A stretch of 64,000 nt of DNA from an uncultured Gammaproteobacteria bacterium (GCA_964350265.1 CAYGJZ010000001.1:33944-97943), one strand, 5' to 3'. Counted from the stretch's first letter, positions 33,130 to 58,441 are shown. Notes: a model not told the origin generated them from the letters alone. A program made the numbers and translations.

Positions 33130-33253
33130 TTGCCGGACGTAATACCCGCGGCCCGATTCCGGAAATTCCGGCGTTGCCGCCGTGAATCCAGGCGGGACAC
33201 CCAGCCGTCGAGCGACCAGCGGTCGCCGACCATCACAGCGAGGAGCCAATACC

Positions 33254-34540
33254 ATGCCAACCAGAAATGCAGAAACCTGGAAGCAGGCGCCGAAGGGCCT
33301 GCGTCAGGGCGAATGGATCGATTCGCGCATCTACTCCGACCGGGAGATCTTCGAAGAAGAGCTGAACAAGGTCTGGAAGAAGTGCTGGATCGCGGTCTGC
33401 CACGAATCCGAGCTGTCCGAGCCCTACGATTTCCGCACCATGACCATCGCTCGCGAGCCGATCATCGTGGTGCGTGGCCCGGACAACAAGATCCGCGCCT
33501 TCCTCAACGTCTGTCCGCACCGCGGCAACATGATCGAGATGCGTCCTTCCGGCAACTTCAAGGAAGGCACCCCGTCGGGCAACCCCAAGCACATGACCTG
33601 CATGTTCCACGCCTGGCAGTTCGACATGAAGGGCAACTGTTCCTACATCTCGCGCGAGAAGGAAGGTTACCAGGAGCGCCTGACCCGCAAGGACGTCGGC
33701 CTGCGCAAGCTGAAGAGCGAAGTGTACTTCGGCGGTTTCGTCTGGGTCTGCCTGGACGACGAGATGGACCAGACCGTGGCCGAGTGGGGCGGCGGTGCCT
33801 TCGATTGCCTGCAAAAGGCGGTGGACGAAGAGCCGTTGGAGGTCTTCCACTACCACAAGGCCATCATTCCGTGCAATTACAAGCTGTGGCATGACACCAA
33901 CTCGGAGTTCTACCACGACTACCTGCACTACCATAACCGCATCACCGGCTTCAACGACGAGTACTTCGCGCGCAAGAACTCCGCCTACGACAACGGTCAC
34001 GTGGTAGTCGGCTCGTTCAAGGTGCGCTACGACCAGTACGAGGGCTTCCATTCCCGTGCCGATGCCTCCTTCCCGCACATGGAGGAGAATGCCTGGTACA
34101 TGATCGACATGTTCCCGGGCATCAACTTCAACCTGCGCGGTTCGGCGCTGCGTTGCGACCTGATGACGCCGCTGTCGCCCAACGAGGTGATGATCGAGTT
34201 CCGCGGTCTCGGCCTGAAGAGCGACACCCCGGAGCTGCGCAAGGCACGCATCGAGCACCACAACTCGATCTGGGGTCCGTTCGGGCGCAACCTGCACGAG
34301 GACCTGATCGCGGTCAGCGGCCAGGGCGGCACCATGGCGGAGAACGCCGAGCCGCGCCGCATCCTGCACGGCCGCCACGAGAACCACACCATCCACGACG
34401 AAGTCGGCATGCGTCACTTCTACGACGTCTGGGGCCAGATGATGGATCGCCTGCCGAGCGACCCGACCCAGCCCTACGCGCCGCCCCCCGCGGACCTCGA
34501 GCTCGAGGAGCCTGCGAAACAGGCTGCCAGCGCAGGCTGA
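33254..34540 (+). CDS. msmA: Methanesulfonate monooxygenase hydroxylase large subunit (Rieske/mononuclear Fe)
   Basis: 428 aa from MPTRNAETWK (GAGGAG RBS). Rieske motif CPH-(26 residues)-CMFH, the unusual X26 spacing described for MsmA. Followed by beta subunit, Rieske ferredoxin and reductase genes. Confidence 0.85.
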   Translation: MPTRNAETWKQAPKGLRQGEWIDSRIYSDREIFEEELNKVWKKCWIAVCHESELSEPYDFRTMTIAREPIIVVRGPDNKIRAFLNVCPHRGNMIEMRPSGNFKEGTPSGNPKHMTCMFHAWQFDMKGNCSYISREKEGYQERLTRKDVGLRKLKSEVYFGGFVWVCLDDEMDQTVAEWGGGAFDCLQKAVDEEPLEVFHYHKAIIPCNYKLWHDTNSEFYHDYLHYHNRITGFNDEYFARKNSAYDNGHVVVGSFKVRYDQYEGFHSRADASFPHMEENAWYMIDMFPGINFNLRGSALRCDLMTPLSPNEVMIEFRGLGLKSDTPELRKARIEHHNSIWGPFGRNLHEDLIAVSGQGGTMAENAEPRRILHGRHENHTIHDEVGMRHFYDVWGQMMDRLPSDPTQPYAPPPADLELEEPAKQAASAG

Positions 34541-34620
34541 GTGGCCCTTCCCGGCGGCGACCCGAGCGGTCGCCGCCGACCGATGCTGTTGATCGAAAAC
34601 CTGTCGAGTTCAAGAACACC

Positions 34621-35121
34621 ATGAGTAACGAAAAACGCACGGCCGCCGTGGAGGCCGTCAAGGACACCATCTACCGCGCCTGCCTGCACCTGGACGACGA
34701 AAAGTGGAGCGACTGGCTGGACCAGTGTGACCAGGACTTCACCTATGCCATCTGCGCCTACAGCCCGGAAATCCGCACCGACATGACCTACCTGTCCGGC
34801 GACCGCGAGGAAATGGTGTCGTTGACGGAGATGCTGCCCAAGCACAACACCGACCAGTCGCCGCTGAGCCGTCATGCCACCGTCTACGCGGTGGACGTCA
34901 GCGAGGACGGCACCGAGGCCAGCGCGGTGACCACCGTGGCCATCTACCAGACCCGTCTGAACGGCAACAGCTCCCACGTCGATGCCGGTTCCACCCACCT
35001 GTTCGTCAGTGCCAAGTACTACGACAAGTTGCGACTGGTGGACGGCAAGGCCAAGTTCGTCGAGCGGGTGACGCGGCTGGACACCCGCCGCCTCGACCGC
35101 GGCTCGCACTGGCCCTTGTAA
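34621..35121 (+). CDS. msmB: Methanesulfonate monooxygenase hydroxylase small (beta) subunit
   Basis: 166 aa from MSNEKRTAAVEAV (frame of ORF 34153..35121). NTF2-like ring-hydroxylating oxygenase beta-subunit pattern. Position follows msmA. Confidence 0.8.
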   Translation: MSNEKRTAAVEAVKDTIYRACLHLDDEKWSDWLDQCDQDFTYAICAYSPEIRTDMTYLSGDREEMVSLTEMLPKHNTDQSPLSRHATVYAVDVSEDGTEASAVTTVAIYQTRLNGNSSHVDAGSTHLFVSAKYYDKLRLVDGKAKFVERVTRLDTRRLDRGSHWPL

Positions 35122-35235
35122 CGACGACGCGGGGCCAAGCGCCCCGCCACGCCGTCGGGCGTCCGAGGAGGAGGCGCGTACCGGCCAACCGGGTCGGTGG
35201 CGCGCAGGAAAAAACGATAAGCGAGCCTACCCTAC

Positions 35236-35595
35236 ATGAGCTGGAAAAACGTCTGTAGCCTGAACGACCTGGAATCCAACAGCCTGCGCGAATTTGATGT
35301 CGACGGCATCAGCATCGTGCTGGCGCGCGTGGACGACCAGGTCCGTGCCATTCCCCCCGCCTGCCCGCACATGGAGGAGCCGCTGGCGCGCTCCGGCCTG
35401 TGTTCCGGCGGCATGCTCACCTGCACCAAGCACCTGTGGCAGTGGGACATCCTCACGGGCGAGGAGCGCGGCGACGCCGAGAAGCCGCTGTTGATGTACG
35501 AGACCAAGGTCGAGGACGACAACGTGCTGGTCTTCGTCGACGGCGAACTCGAGTACGAGTACGACGACGAGGATGACGAGGACGACGATGACTAG
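35236..35595 (+). CDS. msmC: Rieske-type [2Fe-2S] ferredoxin component
   Basis: 119-aa ORF. CPH-X17-CTKH Rieske motif. Poly-acidic C-terminal tail EYEYDDEDDEDDDD. Confidence 0.85.
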   Translation: MSWKNVCSLNDLESNSLREFDVDGISIVLARVDDQVRAIPPACPHMEEPLARSGLCSGGMLTCTKHLWQWDILTGEERGDAEKPLLMYETKVEDDNVLVFVDGELEYEYDDEDDEDDDD

Positions 35596-35646
35596 CGTCC
35601 ATCCCGGCGTCGGCGTTGGCCGTTGCCCGCGCGGAAGCGTGCGCGG

Positions 35647-36699
35647 ATGAGGATCGACGTCAAGGCCAAGAACGGCGAGTTTCACTTCGACTGCGAAGAA
35701 GGCGAACAGGTTCTCTATGCCGGCCTGCGCCAGGGCATCGAGCTGCCCTACGAGTGCGCCACCGGCACCTGCGGCACCTGCAAGGCCCGCGTCGGCGAAG
35801 ACCAGGGCGAACCCATCGTCAACGGCTGGGAGGAAGCCCCCGGTCGCGCCTACCTGAAGCCGAAGCGCGGCGAGTTCCTGATGTGCCAGGCCTCGGCGCG
35901 TGGCAGCTGCCGCATCGTCGTGCCGAGCAAGCTCAACGGCGCCGACGACCATGGTCGGCCCGGCTACCGCAACGGCGTCATCGGCGACCTGCGCACGCTC
36001 AACCCGGACGTGGTCGACTTCCGCGTGCGGCTCGATGCGCCGATGAGTTTCCGCGCCGGCCAGTTCGCCTGCCTGGAAACCCCGGGAGTGGAAGGCTTCC
36101 GCGCCTACTCGATGGTCAACTACGACACCAACGAGACCGACGAGCTGCACTTCGTGGTCAAGCGCAAGCCCGACGGCGCCTTCTCCAAGGCCCTGTTCGA
36201 CGGTCGCATCGACGGCGCTGCCACCCGGGTCTTCGGGCCCCTTGGCAAGGCGGTGTTCGACCCGGCGGAGAACCGCAACGTGCTGTGCATGGCCGGTGGT
36301 TCGGGCATCGCGGGGATGATGTCCATCGCCCGCCACGTCGACCACATCGACTACTGTGCCGATCACCACATGCGCATGTTCTTCGGCGTGCGCAGCGAGC
36401 GCGACACCTTCTACCTCGACGAGCTGGCGGAACTCGCCGAACGGCACGTCGACCGCATGTCGGTGTGGATCGTGCTTTCCGAAGAGGATCCGGGCGAGGC
36501 GCTGCGCGCCGCCTACCCGTCGCTGGGCTTCGACACCGGCTTCGTCCACGAGGTCATGGGTCGACGCATGCAGGGCCTGTACCAGGACTCGGTGGCCTTC
36601 GTGGCCGGGCCGCCGCCGATGGTCGACGGCGTGCTGCGGCTGCTGATCATCGACGGCCGCCTGCCGGCCTCGGACATTCGCTATGACAAGTTCTCGTAA
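35647..36699 (+). CDS. msmD: Ferredoxin-NAD(P)H reductase component (plant-type 2Fe-2S + FNR-like)
   Basis: 350 aa from MRIDVKAKNG (ORF track offers TTG at 35623). CATGTCGTCKARV cluster motif, FAD/NAD domains RAYSMVN and MAGGSGIAGMMS. Confidence 0.85.
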   Translation: MRIDVKAKNGEFHFDCEEGEQVLYAGLRQGIELPYECATGTCGTCKARVGEDQGEPIVNGWEEAPGRAYLKPKRGEFLMCQASARGSCRIVVPSKLNGADDHGRPGYRNGVIGDLRTLNPDVVDFRVRLDAPMSFRAGQFACLETPGVEGFRAYSMVNYDTNETDELHFVVKRKPDGAFSKALFDGRIDGAATRVFGPLGKAVFDPAENRNVLCMAGGSGIAGMMSIARHVDHIDYCADHHMRMFFGVRSERDTFYLDELAELAERHVDRMSVWIVLSEEDPGEALRAAYPSLGFDTGFVHEVMGRRMQGLYQDSVAFVAGPPPMVDGVLRLLIIDGRLPASDIRYDKFS

Positions 36700-36801
36700 C
36701 GCGATGGCGGCGGCTTGCACAATGAAGCAGCCTGCCGGAACATCGAACCACAACCGACGACATGACACCGGCGCTCGCGCGAAGGTATTGGAGGAACGCC
36801 G

Positions 36802-37236
36802 ATGACGGAAACCCCGAACAAGCACGAAGTCCTGGTCGATGCCGAGCTCTTTGCCGGCGTCGACCCGGCCACCATCGACCGCATTGCCGAAGTCTCCGGG
36901 TTCCGGCGCTTCGAGGAAGGCGACGTCGTCTACCAGATGGGCGATGACGCCGACCACGCCTTCGTGCTGGTCCAGGGCCGCGTGCGCTTCAGTCTCGGCG
37001 TGGGCAACCGGCCGGGCAGCGGGCATTCCATCATCACCCGCAACATGACCTACGGCTGGGCTGCGCTGATCGACGAGCGGCCGCGACGCGTGGCTACCGC
37101 CTCGTGTCTCGAGCCGACCGTGCTGCTGGCCATCGACGGTCGCAAGCTGTTGACCATTCTCGAGGACGACACCGCCTCCGGCTTCCTGGTCATGCGGCGC
37201 ATCGCCTCGATGATTGCCAGGAACTTCCTGGAGTAG
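36802..37236 (+). CDS. Stand-alone cNMP-binding-like domain protein (degenerate phosphate-binding cassette)
   Basis: 144-aa ORF with GGAGG RBS. CAP/cNMP-fold pattern GDVVYQMGD..D..FVLVQGRV...YGWAALIDERPRRVATASCL. No HTH or other output domain. Confidence 0.75.
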   Translation: MTETPNKHEVLVDAELFAGVDPATIDRIAEVSGFRRFEEGDVVYQMGDDADHAFVLVQGRVRFSLGVGNRPGSGHSIITRNMTYGWAALIDERPRRVATASCLEPTVLLAIDGRKLLTILEDDTASGFLVMRRIASMIARNFLE

Positions 37237-37260
37237 TATTCACCCGCGCACCAGCGTCAT

Positions 37261-37291
37261 GCCGCGACCCCCGGGGTCGCGGCGCATTTTT
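37261..37291 (+). terminator. Rho-independent terminator after the msmABCD-cNMP unit
   Basis: GCCGCGACCC-CCG-GGGTCGCGGC, then GCA, then TTTTT. Confidence 0.7.
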
Positions 37292-37369
37292 CCCAGGGTC
37301 GCCGCGCGCGGCCCTTGTTGACCGTTCACGAACACCGTACAACGACACCACGCAGAGGAGCGAAACCAC

Positions 37370-39043
37370 ATGGCCAAGACCGATCTTGAGATTGCCCGCG
37401 AGGCGAAGATGCAGCCGATCAACGAGATCGCGTCGAAGATCGGCATTCCCGACGATGCGCTGGCGCCCTTCGGTCGTACCAAGGCCAAGGTGTCCTTCGA
37501 CTTCATCAACACGCTGAAGGACCGCAAGGACGGCAAGCTGATCCTGGTCACGGCGATGTCGCCGACCCCGGCCGGCGAAGGCAAGACCACCACCACGGTG
37601 GGACTCGGCGATGCCCTGAACCGCATCGGCAAGAAGACCATGATGTGCCTGCGCGAGCCGAGCCTCGGCCCGTGCTTCGGCATGAAGGGCGGCGCCGCCG
37701 GCGGCGGCTATGCCCAGGTAGTGCCGATGGAAGACATCAACCTGCACTTCACCGGCGACTTCCACGCCATCACCTCGGCCCACAACCTGCTGTCGGCGAT
37801 GATCGACAACCATGTCTACTGGGGCAACGAGCTCGGCTTCGACCTGCGTCGCATCTCCTGGCGCCGCGTGGTCGACATCAACGACCGCTCGCTGCGTTCC
37901 ATCGCCAGCGGCCTGGGCGGCGTCAGCAACGGCTTCGTGCGCGAGACCGGCTACGACATCACCGTCGCCTCGGAGATCATGGCCATCTTCTGCCTGGCGC
38001 GCGACCTGGATGATCTCAGCGAGCGGCTCGGCAACATCATCGTCGGCTACACCCGGGACCGCGAAGCCATCTATGCCCGCCAGGTGAAAGCCCCGGGCGC
38101 GATGACCGCGTTGCTGCGCGACGCGCTGTCGCCGAACCTGGTGCAGACGCTGGAGAACAACCCGGTGTTCATCCACGGCGGTCCCTTCGCCAACATCGCC
38201 CATGGCTGCAACTCGGTGATCGCCACCACCACCGCGCTCAAGCTGGCCGACTACGTGGTCACCGAGGCCGGCTTCGGCGCCGACCTCGGGGCCGAGAAGT
38301 TCTTCGACATCAAGTGCCGCAAGGCCGGCCTGAATCCCGCTGCCGCGGTCATCGTGGCCACCGTGCGTGCACTGAAGATGCACGGCGGCGTGGCCCGCGA
38401 TGCGCTGGGTGCCGAGGACATTCCGGCATTGAAGGCGGGACTGGCCAACCTTGGCCGTCACATCCGCAACGTCGGTCACTACGGCGTTCCGGTGGTGGTG
38501 GGCATCAACCGCTTCTCCGGCGATACCGACGGCGAGATCGAGGCGGTCAAGGCCTACTGCCGCGAGCTCGGCGTGGAAGCCATTTCCTGCACCCACTGGG
38601 GCGACGGTGGCGCCGGCGCCGAGGCACTGGCCGAGGCGGTGGCCAAGCTGGCCGACAGCGGCAGCGCGCAGTTCCGCACCCTGTACGACGACGACGTGCC
38701 GCTGTGGCAGAAGGCGAAGACCATCGCGCAGAAGATCTACGGCGCCGAGGACATCATCGCCGATGCCCGCGTGCGTGCGCAGTTCACCGCCTACGAGGAA
38801 GCCGGTTTCGGTTCGCTACCGATCTGCATGGCCAAGACGCAATACAGTTTCTCCACCGATCCGAAGCTGCTCGGCGCGCCGAGCGATCACGCGGTGGCCA
38901 TTCGCGAAGTGCGCCTGTCCGCCGGTGCCGGCTTCCTGGTGTGCATCTGCGGCGACATCATGACCATGCCTGGTTTGCCGCGAGTGCCCGCCGCAGACAA
39001 GATTTTCGTCGACGATAACGGCAATATCGAGGGATTGTTCTAG
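37370..39043 (+). CDS. fhs: Formate--tetrahydrofolate ligase
   Basis: 557-aa [19 protein letters not shown]-loop and full-length collinearity with the FTHFS family as recalled ([22 protein letters not shown]). Confidence 0.95.
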
Positions 39044-39103
39044 CCGTTCCACAGTGTGAAAACGGGCCCCGGCAGGGGACGATGGCGGGCGATGTAACAC
39101 CTT

Positions 39104-39175
39104 ACAAGTGATAGCCCGCCCCTATCGTTTCATTCGTTCAAATGACTTTACAAATCGAAGTCAGTCCGCTGAGAT
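39104..39175 (+). promoter_or_regulatory. Conserved MSA-island element, copy 4 (degenerate; far upstream of msmE)
   Basis: GATAGCCCGCCCCTATCGTTTCATTCGTTCAAATGACTTTACA (-35-like TTTACA 39147-39152), then N17, then TGAGAT. Shares the CTATCGT...A.AT.ACTTT.AC frame with copies 1-3, but weaker. Confidence 0.4.
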
Positions 39176-39679
39176 AGATGCAGGTCGGAGGCCGGTAACG
39201 ATGACGTTACCGGTTCGCCGAAACACCGTGAATCACGGTGTTTTCGCAGCGACAAGCAGAACCGGCCCTGGGGTGACACCCTGGCGAGAACAAGTCGCGA
39301 ACACCCTGGCCCGGTCCGCCGCGCCAGGCGGGGTTACGCGACCCGCCGCGACACCCGGCAGCATGTGCGACCCGGCTGCCAGTTGCCAACGGCAACTCGA
39401 CACGGCGCGAATGACAGGAGGAAACATGACGCGTAACCCCAGCTACGCGCAACGACGTGCGCAGCCGGCCACCCCGGCCCGAACAGGACAGAGCCATGCT
39501 CATGCCCTGTCTCGCGCCTGCGCCCTCTCGGTTTCCCGTTCGATTTACCAAGCTCATACTCCGGCCATGACAGCTCACCTGCCTTGCCCGGTGCCCTGAG
39601 TGAGGCCGCCCGGTGCCCATGCGGGCAACCGGTGATGCCTTAGCTACCCAAGAAGTTTGACCACGATAAGGAGGAAGCC

Positions 39680-40816
39680 ATGTTTCAACATCGAACGATT
39701 TCCCGGACCCTGAGCACCGCCGCTGCGGCGATGTTCGCGGTTGGTGTACCGGGAACCGCCCTCGCGGCGGACAAGGACTACGGCAATCCGGGGGAGCCGG
39801 TTGACCTGGTCATTGGTTACCAGCCGTACTACACCCAGTCCTGGTCCGGCGTGGTCATGCGCGGACAGGAACTGTGGAAGAAATACCTTCCGGAAGGTTC
39901 CAGCGTGGAATTCGCCATTGGCCTGCAAGGCGCCATCGTGGTGAACAACATGCTCGCCGGCAAGAACGACATCGGCTACATGGGCGACATGCCGGCCATC
40001 GTTGCCACCACCAAGGACGAGGTCGCCGACATTCGCATCGTCGCCACCCTCGGCACGGGCTGGGACATGTGCAACGTGTTCCTGGTGCGCAACGACGCAC
40101 CGGAATTCGCCGATGCACAGGAGGCCATGAAGTGGCTGGACGGCAAGATCGTCGCGGTGCCGCAGGGTAGCTGTACCGACCGCTTCGCCCGCGCCGTGTT
40201 CGAGAAGCTGTCCATCGAGCCGGAGGCCTACCTCAACCAGAACATCGAGGTCATCACCAGTGGCTTCCGCGTCGGCAAGCTGGACGCGGCGGTCATGTGG
40301 GAACCGACCACCTCGCGCCTGGTGGAAGAGGGCCTGGCCCGACGTGTTGCTTCCGGCGCCTCCGCCGATGAGAACGACGGTGGCTTCCTGGCCATGCGTG
40401 GCGACCTCATCAAGCAGCGCCCGGACGTGGTCAAGGGCTGGCTCGAGGCCGAGCTGGACGCGCAGCTTTTCCTCTCCGATCCGGCCAACTACATGGCGGT
40501 GGTGAAGATGGCGCAGGACCAGACCACCGGCTTCTCCGAGAAGATCCTGTGGAGCTCGCTGGCCGGTTCCTTCCCGGAATCCCAGGGTGGCGTGGAAGTG
40601 CGTGACTACAAGGAATACGCGATTACCCCGCGCGCCCAGGAGCTGCTGACCCGTGCGACCAAGTTCCTGCACTCGATCAAGAGCATCAAGTCGGACACCC
40701 TGCGTCCGGAAGCCGTGATGACCGAGTTCACCGAGGAGATCCTCAAGGAACGTGGCCTGACCGCGCCGATCGGCGAGATCAAGGCTCAGCCCGAGTCCGC
40801 CTACACCGGTAGCTGA
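39680..40816 (+). CDS. msmE: Sulfonate-type (NMT1/TauA-SsuA-like) ABC substrate-binding protein
   Basis: 378-aa ORF. AAGGAGG RBS, signal peptide ...GTALAA. First gene of a binding-permease-ATPase-permease set, the same order as msmEFGH. Confidence 0.75.
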   Translation: MFQHRTISRTLSTAAAAMFAVGVPGTALAADKDYGNPGEPVDLVIGYQPYYTQSWSGVVMRGQELWKKYLPEGSSVEFAIGLQGAIVVNNMLAGKNDIGYMGDMPAIVATTKDEVADIRIVATLGTGWDMCNVFLVRNDAPEFADAQEAMKWLDGKIVAVPQGSCTDRFARAVFEKLSIEPEAYLNQNIEVITSGFRVGKLDAAVMWEPTTSRLVEEGLARRVASGASADENDGGFLAMRGDLIKQRPDVVKGWLEAELDAQLFLSDPANYMAVVKMAQDQTTGFSEKILWSSLAGSFPESQGGVEVRDYKEYAITPRAQELLTRATKFLHSIKSIKSDTLRPEAVMTEFTEEILKERGLTAPIGEIKAQPESAYTGS

Positions 40817-40861
40817 TCGGCAGGTCATCGACGATCCGTCGTCGACGACCCGTCCGTGACT

Positions 40862-40897
40862 GCCTGGTTCATGCGCCAGCGCGCGCATGAACCAGGC
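40862..40897 (+). other. Intercistronic 15-bp perfect hairpin between msmE and msmF
   Basis: GCCTGGTTCATGCGC-CAGCGC-GCGCATGAACCAGGC, with no following T run. Confidence 0.6.
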
Positions 40898-41021
40898 AAC
40901 CGCTGCCCTGTAACCACGTCCGCGGCACCAGGGTCATCAACCACCGCGCCCTGCCGGGTCCGGTGACCAGGCCAGGACCCTGCCGCAAGTTCGATTCCAT
41001 GTCTGACATCCCAAGGAGTTT

Positions 41022-42398
41022 GTGCGCCATGCCGAGGAGTTTCGCGTGAACGAGGCGCTGGTATCGCTGCTCAAGGAAAGCATGCCCTTCCGGGTGGTTT
41101 CCGACGAGTTGCTCAATCGTATCGCCGCCATATCCCGGCGAACGACCTACGACCCCGGCGAGGTGATCTACCACGCCGACGAGCCATCCGACGATATCTA
41201 CATCGTTGTCGAGGGCCGCATCGAACATTCCCTGCCCAGCAACGTGGTCAGCCACAACCCGATCCGCGTGGTCGAGCGTGGCGACGTGTTCGGCTGGGCA
41301 TCCCTGCTGAAGAACCGGCCGGGGCGATTGGCGAAGACGACTTCGCTGGTCAAGTCGGAAGTACTGCGTATCGACGCGCAGCAACTCATGGCGGTGCTGG
41401 ACTCGGATCCGGCGACCGCAGATACCGTCATGAGCCGGTTCGCTACCATGATCAACAAGGATTTCGCCGTGTCCGGAGAAAACGCCCAACTCACCACGCC
41501 CAGTCAAACCGCGACGGGCGCCGACTCGAGAAGCAGTTCCGCTGGCGGCGCGCCCATCACGGGCACGGCGCTGACCATGTTCCGCTTCGCCCAGTGGCTG
41601 CGCAGCCCGCGTCCATACCTGATGCTGATCGGGTTCGCGCTGCTGTTCGGCTTCTGGTTCCTGACCACCGAGGTGTGGAAACTGCCGCGCTTCCGCGAGA
41701 TGCCCGGCCTCACCGAGGTCTGGCGAGAGTGGTTGTCGGAGAACCCCATCTACGGCCTGTCCGTCCACGTGCCCGAGTACTACACCCATATCTGGGTGAG
41801 CATCCGGCGGGTCATGATCGCCTTCGGCCTGGCCACCGTGCTCGGCGTGCCGCTGGGACTGTTCCTCGGCTGGTCGCAGAAGTTCAAGGAATACGTGTTC
41901 CCGGTGTTCGAGACGCTGCGTCCGATCCCGGTGCTGGCCTGGGTGCCGCTGGCCATCCTGATGTTCGCCGGGCTGGAAACCCCGGTCATCTTCCTGACCT
42001 TCCTGGCCTCGTTCTATGCCACTGCGCTGAACACCATGCTCGGCGTGCAGTCCATCGACGAGTCCTACAGTCGCGCCGCCTACTGTCTCGGCGCCAGCGA
42101 CGCACAGGTCTTCCGCCACATCGTCATTCCCGGCGCCATGCCGTTCATCTTCACCGGCCTGCAGATCTCCATCGGCGTGGCCTGGTTCTCGCTGGTGGCG
42201 GCGGAGATGGTCTCGGGACAGTACGGTCTTGGCTACGTCATCAACACTTCGTACACGATGGTTCGTTACCCGACCATCATCATCGGCATGATCACGCTCG
42301 GCGTCATCGGCTACGCCACCAGTGCCATGGTGCGCATGCTCGGCGACCACCTGATGCAGTGGCGTGTACGTGAACTCGCACTGGGAGAGCAGAATTGA
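41022..42398 (+). CDS. msmF: NitT/TauT-family ABC permease with N-terminal cNMP-binding-like domain
   Basis: 458-aa ORF (GTG 41022; the alternative GTG 41046 has better GAGGAG spacing). Residues 1 to about 150 are paralogous to the 36802 protein (GEVIYHADE..D.IYIVVEGRI...FGWASLLKNRPGRLAKTTSL). Residues 200-458 are a 6-TM BPD permease. Confidence 0.8.
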   Translation: MRHAEEFRVNEALVSLLKESMPFRVVSDELLNRIAAISRRTTYDPGEVIYHADEPSDDIYIVVEGRIEHSLPSNVVSHNPIRVVERGDVFGWASLLKNRPGRLAKTTSLVKSEVLRIDAQQLMAVLDSDPATADTVMSRFATMINKDFAVSGENAQLTTPSQTATGADSRSSSAGGAPITGTALTMFRFAQWLRSPRPYLMLIGFALLFGFWFLTTEVWKLPRFREMPGLTEVWREWLSENPIYGLSVHVPEYYTHIWVSIRRVMIAFGLATVLGVPLGLFLGWSQKFKEYVFPVFETLRPIPVLAWVPLAILMFAGLETPVIFLTFLASFYATALNTMLGVQSIDESYSRAAYCLGASDAQVFRHIVIPGAMPFIFTGLQISIGVAWFSLVAAEMVSGQYGLGYVINTSYTMVRYPTIIIGMITLGVIGYATSAMVRMLGDHLMQWRVRELALGEQN

Positions 42399-43270
42399 TT
42401 TCCGCGGTAGAAAACATGAAGGGCAACGGCGGTTCCGCACCGTTGTCCGCCAACGGCGGAGCCATCCGCATCGACGACGTGGTCAAGGTCTATGACCCGG
42501 ACGGCGCAGCGGTGATGGCGGTGGATCATTGCAGCCTGGACATCAAGGCCGGCGAGATCTGCATGATCGTTGGCCCGTCCGGCTGCGGCAAGACCACCTT
42601 GCTGAACGCCATTGCCGGCTTCCACGACATCACTTCCGGCAGCATCCACATGGATGGCGAACTGCTGTGCGGCCCCGGCAAGCCGATGGCCCAGCCCGGT
42701 TCCGACCGCATCGTGGTGTTCCAGAACGGCGCGCTGTTTCCCTGGCGCACCAACCTGGAGAACGTCATCTTCGGCCCGGTGATGCAGGGCAAGATGAGCA
42801 AGAAGGAGGCCATCGAGAAGGCCCGTGGCATGATGGCCGACGCCGGTCTCAACGACGTCGAGTACAACTACCCGGGCGAGATCTCCTCCGGCGTGCGTCG
42901 CCGCGTGGAAATCGTCCGCGCGTTGATGAACGATCCCAAGGTGCTGCTGTTCGACGAGCCCTACCGCGCCCTCGACTCGCTGACCAAGTCGGTCATGCAC
43001 GAGGCGTTGCTGGAGATCTACTACCGCAACCCGGTGACCATCTTCTTCATCACCCACGACCTGGAAGAGGCGTTGTTCGTCGGCCACAAGGTGGCCATCA
43101 TGACCACCCGCCCGTGCAAGCCGAAGAAGATTCTCGACGTCGACATTCCGCATCCGCGGGACTACGGCGTGTTGACCAGCAAGCGATTCCGCGAGCTGAT
43201 GGAAGAAACCGTTGATGCCGTGCACGAGGAGGCCCTGAAGGCCTTCGATCGCGGCGAGAAGGAGGGCTGA
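42395..43270 (+). CDS. msmG: ABC ATPase with non-canonical signature motif
   Basis: 291-aa ORF (TTG overlapping the msmF stop; alternative ATG 42416). Walker A GPSGCGKTT, signature position reads ISSGVRRR, Walker B LLFDEP, H-loop ITHD. Confidence 0.85.
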   Translation: MISAVENMKGNGGSAPLSANGGAIRIDDVVKVYDPDGAAVMAVDHCSLDIKAGEICMIVGPSGCGKTTLLNAIAGFHDITSGSIHMDGELLCGPGKPMAQPGSDRIVVFQNGALFPWRTNLENVIFGPVMQGKMSKKEAIEKARGMMADAGLNDVEYNYPGEISSGVRRRVEIVRALMNDPKVLLFDEPYRALDSLTKSVMHEALLEIYYRNPVTIFFITHDLEEALFVGHKVAIMTTRPCKPKKILDVDIPHPRDYGVLTSKRFRELMEETVDAVHEEALKAFDRGEKEG

Positions 43271-43273
43271 TCG

Positions 43274-44107
43274 ATGGCCACAGCCACCAAGCGCGCTGGT
43301 CGCAAACTGCCGCTGCGCTCGATGCGTCGCGGCGTCATTTCCATCATCGTCTTCCTGGTCCTGTGGGAGATCGGTTCAAGCTTCGGCGAGTGGTTCGGCA
43401 TCCAGCTGCCGTGGATCGGGCGCATTCCCCCGCCCACCGACGTGCTGGTTTCCTGGAAGGGCCTGCTCACCGACCAGGGCTACTGGTACAGCTGGTACCA
43501 GACCTACCTGCGGGTGTTCGCCGGCTTCCTCGCCGCCATGGTGGTGGGGATACCCTTCGGACTGGCCATGGCGGTGAGCCGCACGGCCTACGGCATCCTG
43601 TTCCCGCCCTTCGAGGTGCTGCGTCCGATCCCGCCGCTGGCCTGGGTGCCGGCCGCGATCATCTTCTGGCCCACCCAGGAGCTGTCGATCGCCTTCGTGA
43701 CCTTCCTTGGCGCCTTCTACACCATCGTCATCAACGTGCTCGGCGGAGCCCGCTCCATCGACGTCCGCTACTTCCAGGCGGCGCAGTCCATGGGTGCCAA
43801 TTCCTGGAACGTGTTCCGGCGCATCATCCTGCCCGGCACGCTGCCCTCGATCTTCGTCGGCGCGGCGGTGGGCATGGGCATCACCTGGGAAGTGGTGGTG
43901 GCCGCGGAGATGATCTCCGGTGGCGGCGGCGCCATCCAGGGCGGTTCCGGTGGTGGCCTGGGCTTCTTCATCTGGAACTCCTACGTTGGCGGCTCGGATA
44001 CGCAGATCGTGGTCGGCATGATCAGTATCGGCATCGCCGGCTACATCTCCAGCGAGCTGATCCGTTGGCTCGGCACGTTTGCCACGCCGTGGCTGCGTCA
44101 ACGATGA
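43274..44107 (+). CDS. msmH: NitT/TauT-family ABC permease (second TMD)
   Basis: 277-aa ORF. The BPD-transporter permease core is paralogous to the MsmF C-terminal half (LRPIPPLAWVPAAIIFWP...). Confidence 0.85.
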   Translation: MATATKRAGRKLPLRSMRRGVISIIVFLVLWEIGSSFGEWFGIQLPWIGRIPPPTDVLVSWKGLLTDQGYWYSWYQTYLRVFAGFLAAMVVGIPFGLAMAVSRTAYGILFPPFEVLRPIPPLAWVPAAIIFWPTQELSIAFVTFLGAFYTIVINVLGGARSIDVRYFQAAQSMGANSWNVFRRIILPGTLPSIFVGAAVGMGITWEVVVAAEMISGGGGAIQGGSGGGLGFFIWNSYVGGSDTQIVVGMISIGIAGYISSELIRWLGTFATPWLRQR

Positions 44108-44151
44108 GCCCCACCAAGGCCGCTTAACGAACTTCAAGAGATAGCATAGTC

Positions 44152-45078
44152 ATGGCGATTCAATCCTCCGCCCGGCAGGCAGCAGCCTCCGGCGGCAAAC
44201 TCGGCTCCGACATCGCCCCGGGCGAGATCAAGGTCGAGAACGTTTCCAAGTCCTATGGCACCGGTCCGGTGGCGCGCGAAGTCGTGCGCGACTGTTCCTT
44301 CGTCATCGAGCGCGGCAAGCTCAACGTGATGATCGGCCCCTCCGGCTGCGGCAAGAGCACGCTGATCCGCCTGATCGCCGGCTTCCAGCGGCCCAACAAG
44401 GGCAGCGTGACGCTGGACGGCAAGCCGATCACCGAGCCCTCCCGCGACCGGCTGGTGGTGTTCCAGGAGACCGCGCTGTTCCCCTGGATGACCACCTGGG
44501 AGAACATCGTCTACGGGCCCAAGGCACGTGGCACGTTCAACCGCGAGACCCGCGAGCGGGCAGAGTTCCTGCTCGACAAGGTGGGCCTGGTGCAGTTCCG
44601 CGAGAAGTATCCCACCCAGTTGTCCGGTGGCATGCAGCGTCGCGCCGAACTGGCCCGGGCGATGATCAACAATCCCCAGGTGATGATCCTCGACGAGCCG
44701 TTCCGCGGCCTCGACTCGATGACCAAGGAACTGATGTGGGAGTACTACGCCTCGCTGTTCGAGGAGTCCGGCCGCACCAACTTCTTCGTCACCACCGACA
44801 TCGACGAAGCGGTGTTCCTGGCCGACCGCATGATCATCATGACCAACATCCCCACCCGCGTGCGCGCGGTGCTCGACATCGACCTGCCGCGACCGCGCAA
44901 GCTGTCCGACATGATCGAGGACGACCGCGCCAACGAGGTGAAGATGAAGGCACTGGCGATCCTCCACGAGGAGGCGATGAAGTCGTTCAGCGGCGGCAGC
45001 GCCGCGGCTTCGGACTTCGTCGAGGCCTACTCCCGCCGGGTCGGCAAGCGCAACCGGTCCGACGGCGACGACGGCTGA
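44152..45078 (+). CDS. Second ABC ATPase (canonical signature, H-loop His replaced)
   Basis: 308-aa ORF. Walker A GPSGCGKST, signature LSGGMQRR, Walker B ILDEPF, but the H-loop position reads VTTD instead of THD. Confidence 0.85.
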   Translation: MAIQSSARQAAASGGKLGSDIAPGEIKVENVSKSYGTGPVAREVVRDCSFVIERGKLNVMIGPSGCGKSTLIRLIAGFQRPNKGSVTLDGKPITEPSRDRLVVFQETALFPWMTTWENIVYGPKARGTFNRETRERAEFLLDKVGLVQFREKYPTQLSGGMQRRAELARAMINNPQVMILDEPFRGLDSMTKELMWEYYASLFEESGRTNFFVTTDIDEAVFLADRMIIMTNIPTRVRAVLDIDLPRPRKLSDMIEDDRANEVKMKALAILHEEAMKSFSGGSAAASDFVEAYSRRVGKRNRSDGDDG

Positions 45079-45281
45079 TGCCCGACTGGCTGGTATCGCG
45101 CGCCACCGTCATCACCCTGGCGGTGATCGGCGGGGTGATCTCGCTGGTGGTGTCGCAGCTGCATGGTCGTGGCCGCATCGACGACGCCCAGGCGAAGAAG
45201 TTCAACCGCGTCGGCTACGGCTTCATGTGGGCCAGCATCGCGCTGTTCATCTACGCCGGCTTCCGCGCCGGCTACCAGTAG
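45078..45281 (+). CDS. Small two-TM membrane protein
   Basis: 67 aa, MPDWLVSRATVITLAVIGGVISLVV...FMWASIALFIYAGF. The ATG overlaps the ATPase stop (TGATG), implying translational coupling to the transporter operon. Confidence 0.55.
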   Translation: MPDWLVSRATVITLAVIGGVISLVVSQLHGRGRIDDAQAKKFNRVGYGFMWASIALFIYAGFRAGYQ

Positions 45282-49767: not shown

Positions 49768-50529
49768 ATGACGATGATGACGATCCTGCCACTGGCCGTG
49801 GTGGTCCTGGTTTCCGGCGCATTGATCGGCTGTGTCGGCATCGGCGGCGTGCTGCTGGTGCCGGCGCTGGCCTACATCGGCGGCATCGACGTGCACCTGG
49901 CCATTGCCAGCGTGATGCTCAGCTATTTCTTCACCGGCGTGCTCGGCACCTGGCTGTATGCGCGCAAGGGATCCATCACCTGGGCGATGGCCGGCACCCT
50001 GTGCGCCGGCGCCATGCCCGGTGCCTTCCTCGGCGCCGCCGCGGTGCACGCGGTGCCGGGGCCGACGGTGGAACTGATCATCGGCCTTTTGGTGATCTTC
50101 TCCGGCCTGCATGCCCTGTACAGCGGCGAACGCAGTGCCAGCCGGGAGAGCCTGTCGGCGGCGGCACTGTTCGCGGTGGGCTTGTTCACCGGCTTCGGTT
50201 CGTCCCTCACCGGCTCTGGCGGGCCGTTGCTGCTGGTGCCGCTGCTGGTGTGGATGGGGCTGCCGGTGCTGGTCTCCATCGGTCTCAGCCAGGTCATCCA
50301 GGTGCCCATCGCGGTGCTGGCCACCGCGGGCAACATCGCCTACGGCGAGATCGACCTGGTGCTGGCACTGGTGGTGGCGGCGATGCTGATGCTCGGCGTG
50401 GTGGCCGGTGCGCGGCTGGCCCACCGGGTGTCGGCACGGACCCTGAAGCAGGTGGTGGCCTGGGTGATGGTGGCGGTGGGCGTCATCATCGTGGTGCGGA
50501 TCGGCTGGACCATGCTCGGCGGCGGTTGA
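49768..50529 (+). CDS. TauE/SafE-family sulfite (anion) exporter
   Basis: 253-aa ORF with about 8 TM segments. TauE/SafE-type glycine-rich repeats (GIGGVLLVPAL, GSGGPLLLVPLL). Confidence 0.8.
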   Translation: MTMMTILPLAVVVLVSGALIGCVGIGGVLLVPALAYIGGIDVHLAIASVMLSYFFTGVLGTWLYARKGSITWAMAGTLCAGAMPGAFLGAAAVHAVPGPTVELIIGLLVIFSGLHALYSGERSASRESLSAAALFAVGLFTGFGSSLTGSGGPLLLVPLLVWMGLPVLVSIGLSQVIQVPIAVLATAGNIAYGEIDLVLALVVAAMLMLGVVAGARLAHRVSARTLKQVVAWVMVAVGVIIVVRIGWTMLGGG

Positions 50530-58365: not shown

Positions 58366-58441
58366 GGCCAGGTAGCTCAGTCGGTAGAGCAGGGGACTGA
58401 AAATCCCCGTGTCGGCAGTTCGATTCTGTCCCTGGCCACCA
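58366..58441 (+). tRNA. tRNA-Phe (anticodon GAA), CCA encoded
   Basis: GGCCAGGTAGCTCAGTCGGTAGAGCAGGGGACTGAAAATCCCCGTGTCGGCAGTTCGATTCTGTCCCTGGCCACCA. Cloverleaf arms pair, the anticodon loop is CTGAAAA, and it is close to E. coli tRNA-Phe. Confidence 0.95.

Follow-up and report, generated by a model that had tools for sequence, protein, structure and literature searches.

Why would a bacterial gene cluster for the degradation of methanesulfonate (MSA) carry two domains of the cyclic nucleotide-binding (CNB) fold, one as a small free protein and the other joined to the membrane subunit of an importer? The question is raised by a stretch of 64,000 nucleotides (nt) from an uncultured Gammaproteobacteria bacterium (GCA_964350265.1, CAYGJZ010000001.1:33944-97943), here called the window, with positions counted from its first letter. 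In the atmosphere, MSA arises as a major product of dimethylsulfide oxidation; when bacteria break it down, two toxic products, sulfite and formaldehyde, are released. In the literature consulted, only putative regulator genes are mentioned for msm operons (PMC4433239), and post-translational control of the pathway is not described. For Marinosulfonomonas methylotropha TR3, orfX and orfY are reported as such putative regulators. Open reading frame (ORF) calls and domain searches revealed a complete MSA catabolic cluster on the plus strand of the window (33182-45281), in which a free protein of 144 residues is encoded after msmD and a domain of the same type forms the N-terminus of the permease MsmF. 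As judged from their sequences, the two domains are members of a distinct, pathway-dedicated subfamily of the CNB fold. The site that formerly held the phosphate is strongly constrained in this module, which is repeatedly and specifically wired to three machines of one pathway.

A sequence-only reading of this DNA had proposed that the free protein and the N-terminus of MsmF are paralogous CNB-like domains that keep the Gly and the Arg of the phosphate-binding cassette, replace its Glu by Trp and the Ser/Thr after the Arg by Val or Leu, and lack a helix-turn-helix (HTH); each of these points was borne out. Both domains exceeded the gathering cut-off of Pfam PF00027 cNMP_binding (27.5 bits), with 46.9 bits over residues 35-122 of the free protein and 54.8 bits over residues 42-128 of MsmF. 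They aligned to each other with 31% identity over 126 residues, and the E-value of 3e-24 ruled out a chance resemblance. AlphaFold2 (AF2) gave the canonical CNB fold for both, with a predicted local distance difference test (pLDDT) score of 88.7 for the free protein and 84-95 for residues 1-139 of MsmF. The AF2 secondary structure and Foldseek agreed on an eight-stranded beta-barrel, a cassette helix and a C-terminal helix, with template modelling (TM) scores of 0.77-0.81 against GlxR, Mycobacterium tuberculosis CRP, DNR, Clr and the stand-alone protein 3mdp.

In the alignment to Escherichia coli CRP, the cassette Gly and Arg were retained (G85 and R96 in the free protein, G91 and R102 in MsmF), CRP Glu72 corresponded to Trp in both domains and CRP Ser83 to Val or Leu. 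Profile alignments to PKG in the PDB placed the same Trp on the Glu of 'FGE'. Therefore, two hallmarks of functional cAMP/cGMP receptors, the Gly and the Arg, are present, whereas the Glu or polar residue and the Ser/Thr after the Arg are missing. No HTH was detected in either protein with Pfam and NCBIfam, nor any further domain apart from the permease domain of MsmF, the free protein ending with its C-helix at residue 144. The NCBIfam models for CRP, FNR and FtrB scored far below cut-off, and none of the NCBIfam models reached its cut-off for any of the four classes described below.

The cassette Arg and the N-terminus of the cassette helix form the classic anion site of the CNB fold. The changes from Glu to Trp and from Ser/Thr to a hydrophobic residue would, according to the alignment, remove the nucleoside-specific contacts. 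We know of no precedent for a Trp at the cassette Glu position, nor, among cNMP-binding cassettes, for an invariant residue as bulky as Trp at the position of the ribose 2'-OH, combined with an invariant hydrophobic residue after the Arg; in Epac, the position directly after the cassette Arg is occupied by Ala. The earlier statement that the Glu and the Ser/Thr are needed for cNMP binding was too strong, because cAMP is bound by Epac1 and by Epac2, which have Gln and Lys, respectively, in place of the Glu (PMC4300089).

To define the family to which both domains belong (GW family, with a GW...R[VLI]A cassette), 232 copies were aligned, comprising 104 free proteins, 121 MsmF N-termini, four second domains of tandem pairs and three ferredoxin-fused copies. 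The core common to them is F-G-W-A-A-L-[LI]-x3-P-x-R-[VLI]-A-x-[AT]-x-C-[LV]-E. The Gly, the Trp, the Arg, Tyr44 and Gly59 were conserved in 100% of the copies and the residue after the Arg was always V, L or I; the invariance of Gly, Trp and Arg and the V, L or I after the Arg also held in a broader set of 24 sequences including a class linked to tauE. A C-helix motif, VM[RS]R[LF]A.MI.RDF, was kept across classes. The Cys after the cassette (C102 in the free protein) was found in 99% of the free class and in 59% of the permease-fused class, being Ser in the MsmF of the window, and it was present in all ferredoxin-fused and tauE-linked copies examined. The homologues of the free protein (n = 105) all had about 144-153 residues.

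A neighbour-joining tree resolved four monophyletic classes, permease-fused, ferredoxin-fused, after-msmD and before-tauE, with class labels assigned by simple rules and the free copies labelled 'S_' from loci L089-L168 being of the tauE class by origin. The window holds the after-msmD and the permease-fused classes. A profile search over 1.8 billion representatives gave a ranking dominated by multi-domain PKG-like proteins, with little information on family size, and filtering of this whole-library search by the GW motif recovered 32 members. Public labels for the family are 'CRP-like cAMP-binding protein', 'Crp/Fnr family transcriptional regulator' and 'toluene monooxygenase system ferredoxin subunit'; such automatic labels are probably misleading. 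No paper or curated family model describing the GW family was found, nor any paper linking CNB domains to MSA metabolism, TauE or ABC (ATP-binding cassette) permeases.

The first of the three machines is the importer. Beyond its CNB domain, MsmF shows the permease domain PF00528 at residues 275-440, and its frame runs without interruption from 41022 to 42398, an in-frame stop lying just upstream at 41007. The GTG at 41046 has a GAGGAG Shine-Dalgarno sequence with a 6-nt spacer, better than the site of the GTG at 41022, and a 100% identical database protein (P0001, 450 residues) also begins at 41046. Thus, the ORF from 41022 exists as first described, but 41046 is the likelier start of MsmF, and the domain is kept with either of them. 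The identical 450-residue protein recurred on 14 contigs, which stem from at least four different sequencing runs. All the 120 best MsmF homologues (62-100% identity) carry both PF00528 and PF00027. A tandem pair of CNB domains was present in four of these 120 (616-625 residues; P0006-P0009). One MsmF homologue with two tandem CNB-like domains (L005:10001-11851) has copies that are each other's closest relatives and sisters in the tree, so an internal duplication is indicated.

The claim that the fusion is real and translated was therefore upheld. The contrary proposal, that the extension is an artefact of annotation or assembly and that the true start lies past the domain, has in its favour only the ambiguity between the GTG codons at 41022 and 41046; it is effectively refuted by the continuous frame, the good Shine-Dalgarno sequence at 41046, the identical protein on 14 contigs, the presence of both domains in all the best homologues and the invariance of the key residues in 121 fused sequences. 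The fusion is frequent in databases, where it is automatically annotated as CRP-like or as a permease; the view that it had not been described before agrees with the lack of a paper on it in the literature found, but the proteins themselves are common. In Filomicrobium, the characterised msmF gene is 888 bp long (about 295 residues), which leaves no room for a CNB domain, and no PDB entry spans a CNB domain and an ABC permease.

The membrane part of MsmF has its nearest solved chains in CmpB (9u9z, E 1e-32) and NrtB (8w9m/8wm8, E 2e-31), and it matched the TauC, SsuC and NtrB models below their equivalog cut-offs. The BPD_transp_1 domain, the EAA loop and the similarity to NrtB, CmpB, TauC and SsuC identify it as a type I importer permease of the NitT/TauT type. 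The EAA coupling loop at residue 339 comes after four helices; as this loop is cytoplasmic in type I importers, the CNB domain is predicted to be cytoplasmic as well. About 30 disordered residues (AF2 pLDDT around 40) link the CNB domain to the first membrane helix. The AF2 model of full-length MsmF had a predicted TM score (pTM) of 0.49, so that the relative orientation of the domains is undefined and the model does not give the docking place of the CNB domain. As the second permease, MsmH, is unfused, there would be one tethered domain per transporter and two in the tandem forms.

The second machine is the oxygenase. In the ferredoxin-fused class, the CNB domain is joined to the C-terminus of the Rieske ferredoxin MsmC, and such Rieske-CNB fusions were found after msmD in L005, L075, L078, L085-L088, L093, L096 and L134. 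Examples of 238-243 residues are encoded at L005:7908-8636, L085:7943-8671, L087:7913-8629, L075:13588-14361 and L078:13613-14386. The betaproteobacterial-type clusters L005, L085/L086 and L087/L088 have the order msmA-msmB-msmD-[Rieske-CNB]-msmE-[CNB-MsmF]-msmG-msmH-ATPase-small ORF-folD, and the fusion is their only Rieske ferredoxin gene, whereas L075 and L078 retain an ordinary msmC beside it. The earlier suggestion that the soluble copy acts on the oxygenase thus gained independent support from covalent MsmC-CNB fusions in other genomes.

The third machine is the sulfite exporter TauE. The class linked to it consists of free proteins of about 152 residues ending in ...LTxFAAG. A metagenome scan, for which the tauE-class alignment was used because a broader one was too diverse, yielded 80 loci (L089-L168). 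The tauE gene was immediately downstream, on the same strand, in 62 of the 76 loci with downstream room, and upstream of the CNB gene there was a PanB-like gene in 57 loci and a sigma-54 response regulator in 19. About 17 of the tauE-class loci had msm transporter or oxygenase genes within 8 kb. Some of the loci devoid of msm genes lie near a PhsA/PsrA-like molybdopterin oxidoreductase of about 1000 residues (minus strand; L091:11372-14515 and L105:9562-14290), which is adjoined in L105 by a DmsC-like anchor. These genes would fit a cytoplasmic sulfite dehydrogenase of the SoeABC type, but it was not confirmed, as no model reached its cut-off.

The frequency of these arrangements was assessed in 79 msmA loci from species-representative genomes, classified by local BLAST; as this sample was selected by likeness to the MsmA of the window, the frequencies are not a census. 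At the position after msmD, 60 assessable loci showed a free CNB gene in 12 cases, a Rieske-CNB fusion in two and nothing in 46. MsmF was fused in five and unfused in 39 of the 44 loci in which it could be assessed. The free class occurred alongside an unfused MsmF in all six assessable genome loci, and three loci with a fused MsmF showed no second copy nearby; these counts do not support an obligatory pairing of free and fused copies. In the loci examined, the members of the family lie almost wholly in msm and tauE neighbourhoods.

The reading that we favour, to which we give about an even chance of being right, is that the GW domains are cytoplasmic sensors of a small pathway-specific anion, sulfite or MSA, which would tune import, oxygenation and sulfite export at the post-translational level. 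The invariant Arg and the cassette helix would hold this anion, while the Trp would close what was the ribose site. Once bound, the anion would alter the contact of the domain with its partner, and uptake would thereby be balanced with the electron flow to the oxygenase and the export of sulfite. In the window, the MsmEFGH importer would be throttled by the copy tethered to it, and the target of the free copy, which is probably transcribed together with msmABCD, would be the oxygenase system. In general, a ferredoxin-linked or free copy may modulate electron delivery to the oxygenase, and a tauE-linked copy may act on export. That a ligand is bound, which one it is and in what direction it regulates are points that we infer from the sequences, the predicted structures and the gene contexts, on which all statements on function are based.

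As the members are confined almost wholly to msm and tauE neighbourhoods, a pathway metabolite is favoured as the ligand, and the linkage to tauE points to sulfite, the toxic product for which TauE serves as exporter and SorAB as oxidising enzyme. The alternative is MSA, with a sulfonate group shaped like phosphate. Sulfite is the most plausible single metabolite to be read by all four classes, so that import would be closed, electron supply cut and export opened together; this narrower proposal is tentative and may well fail. The sequence-only reading had already named sulfite as a candidate, and the class directly upstream of tauE lends it circumstantial support; its binding and the trans-inhibition of the importer that was proposed with it stay conditional. 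The regulatory domains of NrtC and CmpC, on relatives of this transporter family, offer an analogy for a regulatory domain on an importer. That precedent had been invoked before, and it holds as far as the existence of a regulatory domain goes; the NrtC domain resembles a substrate-binding protein, but it works mainly as a docking platform for PII and not by simple substrate trans-inhibition (PMC10945777).

Several points weigh against an anion sensor. The pocket geometry is deduced from alignment, and the loss of the Glu and the Ser/Thr does not by itself preclude cAMP binding, as seen in Epac (PMC4300089). In NrtBCD, mutation of the own ligand site of the regulatory domain left the uptake profile unchanged, and the domain was stabilised by its bound partner PII, which inhibits transport (PMC10945777); by analogy, control by a partner protein could operate here too. 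Most msm clusters do without the domain (46/60 after msmD, 39/44 at MsmF), and the purified MSA monooxygenase (MSAMO) of strain M2 needs four components only (PMC4433239). Given this absence and the sufficiency of four components, the domain is an accessory added by some lineages to the core pathway.

The partner proteins bring in a rather different explanation, which we consider doubtful: the domains may be ligand-free docking modules like the CNB-homology domains of KCNH channels, in which the Trp plugs the pocket and the C-helix forms homo- or heterodimers. A free or ferredoxin-borne copy would then pair with the copy on MsmF, the electron carrier would be brought to the importer and MSA would be oxidised at entry. 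CRP-type domains dimerise through the C-helix, and in the GW family the C-helix motif is conserved across classes; the CNB-homology domain of EAG1 is among the structural matches. MsmF provides one copy per heterodimeric transporter, some homologues have a tandem pair, and a second copy is usual where MsmF is fused; in the window it is the free protein, whereas L005, L075, L078, L085-L088, L093 and L134 have a Rieske fusion. A soluble protein is also what the regulatory domain of NrtC docks (PMC10945777). The pairing is not obligatory, as shown by the co-occurrence counts above, the tauE-linked class does not fit a bridge between transporter and oxygenase, and the complete conservation of the cassette Arg in four classes is hard to explain without an anionic ligand.

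The domains could also be genuine cAMP/cGMP receptors with an unusual cassette, which would place MSA uptake and oxidation under second-messenger control by carbon or energy status. We regard this as distinctly improbable, since an invariant Trp together with an invariant hydrophobic residue after the Arg is unlike the cNMP cassettes known in general, and the neighbourhoods, almost wholly those of msm and tauE in the loci examined, fit a pathway metabolite better than a global messenger; on its side are the Pfam scores of both domains, the retained phosphate-binding Gly and Arg, the binding of cAMP by Epac1 and Epac2 without the cassette Glu (PMC4300089) and a mention in a review of uncharacterised fusions between CNB domains and major facilitator superfamily (MFS) transporters (PMC10710835). 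What is sensed could also be the other toxic product, formaldehyde, or oxidative uncoupling, by a covalent or redox mechanism at the Cys after the cassette. The near-universal presence of this Cys in the free class and in the ferredoxin-fused and tauE-linked copies would agree with this, as would the genes for one-carbon (C1) handling in the clusters (fhs, folD, GCV_T-like and PanB-like) and the release of formaldehyde by MSAMO (PMC4433239). The Cys is found in little more than half of the permease-fused class and is Ser in the MsmF of the window, the invariant residues being the Trp and the Arg, so this explanation is very unlikely. Sensing of a pathway anion thus remains the reading that we prefer.

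The organisation of the cluster in the window is given in Table 1. Its gene order is msmA, msmB, msmC, msmD, the 144-residue ORF, fhs, msmE, the MsmF permease gene, msmG, msmH, a second ATPase gene and a 67-residue membrane ORF.

Table 1. Features of the msm cluster in the window (positions counted from its first nucleotide) and example loci of the tauE-linked class.
Feature	Position	Strand	Evidence
msmA, methanesulfonate monooxygenase hydroxylase alpha subunit	33182..34540	+	Rieske and Ring_hydroxyl_A domains
msmB, hydroxylase beta subunit, 166 residues	34621..35121	+	ORF position and synteny with Ring_hydroxyl_B genes in L005 and L085
msmC, Rieske ferredoxin, unfused in the window	35236..35595	+	PF00355, 48.4 bits
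msmD, reductase	35623..36699	+	Fer2, FAD_binding_6 and NAD_binding_1 domains
Free 144-residue CNB-fold protein, class S 'after msmD', cassette YGWAALIDERPRRVATASCLE	36802..37236	+	PF00027, 46.9 bits
Terminator-like hairpin	37260..37284	+	11 pairs, 9 of them G-C, then a T-run
fhs, formate-tetrahydrofolate ligase, between oxygenase and transporter genes	37370..39043	+	ORF
msmE, periplasmic substrate-binding protein, SsuA-like	39680..40816	+	NMT1_2, 41.1 bits; SsuA_fam match sub-threshold
N-terminal CNB-fold domain of MsmF, class F, cassette FGWASLLKNRPGRLAKTTSL	41046..41480 (ORF start at 41022 possible)	+	PF00027, 54.8 bits
Ser/Thr/Gly/Ala-rich low-complexity linker, CNB domain to first membrane helix	41481..41560	+	AF2 pLDDT about 40, residues 145-170
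MsmF membrane domain, NitT/TauT-type permease	41561..42398	+	PF00528, 90.8 bits; EAA loop at residue 339 (450-residue form)
msmG, ATPase 1	42395..43270	+	ABC_tran, 104.5 bits
msmH, second permease, unfused	43274..44107	+	PF00528, 63.1 bits; CNB domain absent
Second ATPase of the importer	44152..45078	+	ABC_tran, 122.1 bits; position kept in related loci
tauE-class examples	L134:7980-9200; L105:7998-9244; L085:18629-19893		CNB stop and tauE start abut in L134

MsmA has the CXH-X26-CXXH spacer, with its 26 residues, that is the signature of MsmA (PMC4433239), and it was 66-90% identical to its homologues in the 79 genome loci. The msmA ORF starts mechanically at GTG 33182, but its homologues align only from residue 22-25 or so, and the ATG at 33254 (MPTRNAETW...) is, on this alignment, more likely the true start. 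The free CNB gene has its own Shine-Dalgarno site, a GGAGG 7 nt ahead of the ATG. The strong terminator-like hairpin, which begins 24 nt past the gene, indicates that msmABCD and the CNB gene probably constitute one transcription unit, and suggests that the CNB gene is the last of the msmABCD transcript.

Homologues of the fhs gene that follows also adjoin msm genes in L005, L020, L045 and L064, and PF01268 was found on a neighbour in L087. Clusters related to that of the window carry folD, 5-formyltetrahydrofolate cyclo-ligase, GCV_T-like and PanB-like genes. This, together with fhs, points to a tetrahydrofolate-linked route for the formaldehyde derived from MSA.

The spacer between msmE and msmF contains a perfect 16-bp G+C-rich hairpin at 40861-40897 (dG -35.6 kcal/mol, z -5.5 versus shuffles) without a T-run, which could act in mRNA stabilisation or attenuation, setting the ratio of binding protein to membrane subunit. 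With two differing permeases and two differing ATPases, the importer is fully heteromeric, unlike NrtBCD, in which there are two identical copies of NrtB. Apart from ABC_tran and weak, generic matches to P-loop families, domain searches of the two ATPases detected nothing, and neither of them showed an added regulatory domain. A third ATPase-like ORF, about 30% identical, comes next in many related loci. The 67-residue ORF of the window (45078-45281) overlaps the stop of the second ATPase gene and encodes two predicted membrane helices; a gene of 63-67 residues was called at the equivalent position in L001-L003, L005, L085 and L087, so the importer may have a small subunit that has gone unrecognised.

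Downstream of the cluster lie genes for a SorAB-type sulfite dehydrogenase on the minus strand and, further on, TauE, GCV_T-like and PanB-like genes. The tauE gene of the window itself (49771-50499) has no CNB neighbour. A tRNA gene is located at 58366-58438, and past 58 kb the G+C content falls from about 0.70 to 0.54-0.60, which may mark the border of a genomic island or a site of integration.

What is new here is the cassette, its partners and a coherent distribution over a whole pathway, whereas the fold and the regulatory logic are known. The distribution suggests an undescribed layer of control over the MSA pathway, and the family marks the importer, the electron chain of the oxygenase and the sulfite exporter as candidate control points. 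The 144-residue protein is small, soluble and well modelled, and thus suited to direct ligand screening. If the ligand were sulfite or a sulfonate, the CNB fold would gain a new specificity and a ready biosensor scaffold would be at hand; a sensor on MsmF would widen the ways in which ABC importers are regulated, both its fold and its place at the N-terminus of the permease being new in this role. Should the proposal on sulfite prove right, flux through a C1/sulfur pathway would be governed by a distributed system acting at the post-translational level only. It would comprise the first sensor with a CNB fold for an inorganic sulfur anion, and a type I ABC importer would for the first time be seen to carry a regulatory domain on its membrane subunit.

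Compared with known systems, the cluster has the components of msmABCD/EFGH: the MsmA spacer, MsmB, a Rieske ferredoxin, a reductase and an SsuA-like ABC importer. The GW family shares with the CNB domains of CRP/FNR and of PKA/PKG the beta-barrel, the cassette helix, the long C-helix and the Gly and Arg, but it has Trp for Glu and V, L or I for Ser/Thr, and it is devoid of a DNA-binding, kinase or channel effector. The best structural match of the free protein was Gmet_1532 of Geobacter metallireducens (PDB 3mdp, from structural genomics; E 6e-11, TM 0.77/0.84), which is close to it in size (132 residues modelled) and likewise stands alone without an effector domain, although the two are only 20% identical and the cyclic-nucleotide-binding role in the title of the entry is 'putative'. 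Precedents for a CNB pocket retuned to other small molecules exist in NtcA (for 2-oxoglutarate), CprK, CooA and PrfA, NtcA being among the sequence matches; unlike the GW family, all of these are HTH transcription factors, and to our knowledge none has the GW...R[VLI]A cassette.

In the CNB-homology domains of the KCNH channels (EAG/hERG), nucleotide binding was lost and the domains act through protein contacts. A C-terminal strand serves as 'intrinsic ligand' and fills their pocket, and the Trp of the GW family could be a plug of this kind; the cassette Arg is not conserved in KCNH, whereas its invariance in the GW family argues against such a role. As in MsmF, a cytoplasmic CNB domain is tethered to a membrane transport protein in the HCN, CNG and MloK1 channels, in SLC9C1 and in the MFS-CNB fusions, and HCN, CNG and SLC9C1 were among the structural matches of the free protein. 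These systems have canonical cassettes that bind cAMP or cGMP, and their membrane part is a channel or a secondary carrier instead of a type I ABC importer. Among importers, regulatory domains are known on the ATPases MetN, ModC, MalK, OpuA, NrtC and CmpC. The concept shared with NrtC/CmpC, the C2 domain of MetN and the ModC domains is that of a cytoplasmic accessory domain, covalently attached to an importer, that adjusts transport. The regulatory domain on the ATPase C-terminus, dimerising when substrate binds, that is the hallmark of the trans-inhibited MetNI/ModBC type is missing from the importer of the window: in NrtC/CmpC, MetN and ModC the domains have other folds and sit at the C-terminus of the ATPase, whereas that of MsmF sits at the N-terminus of the permease.

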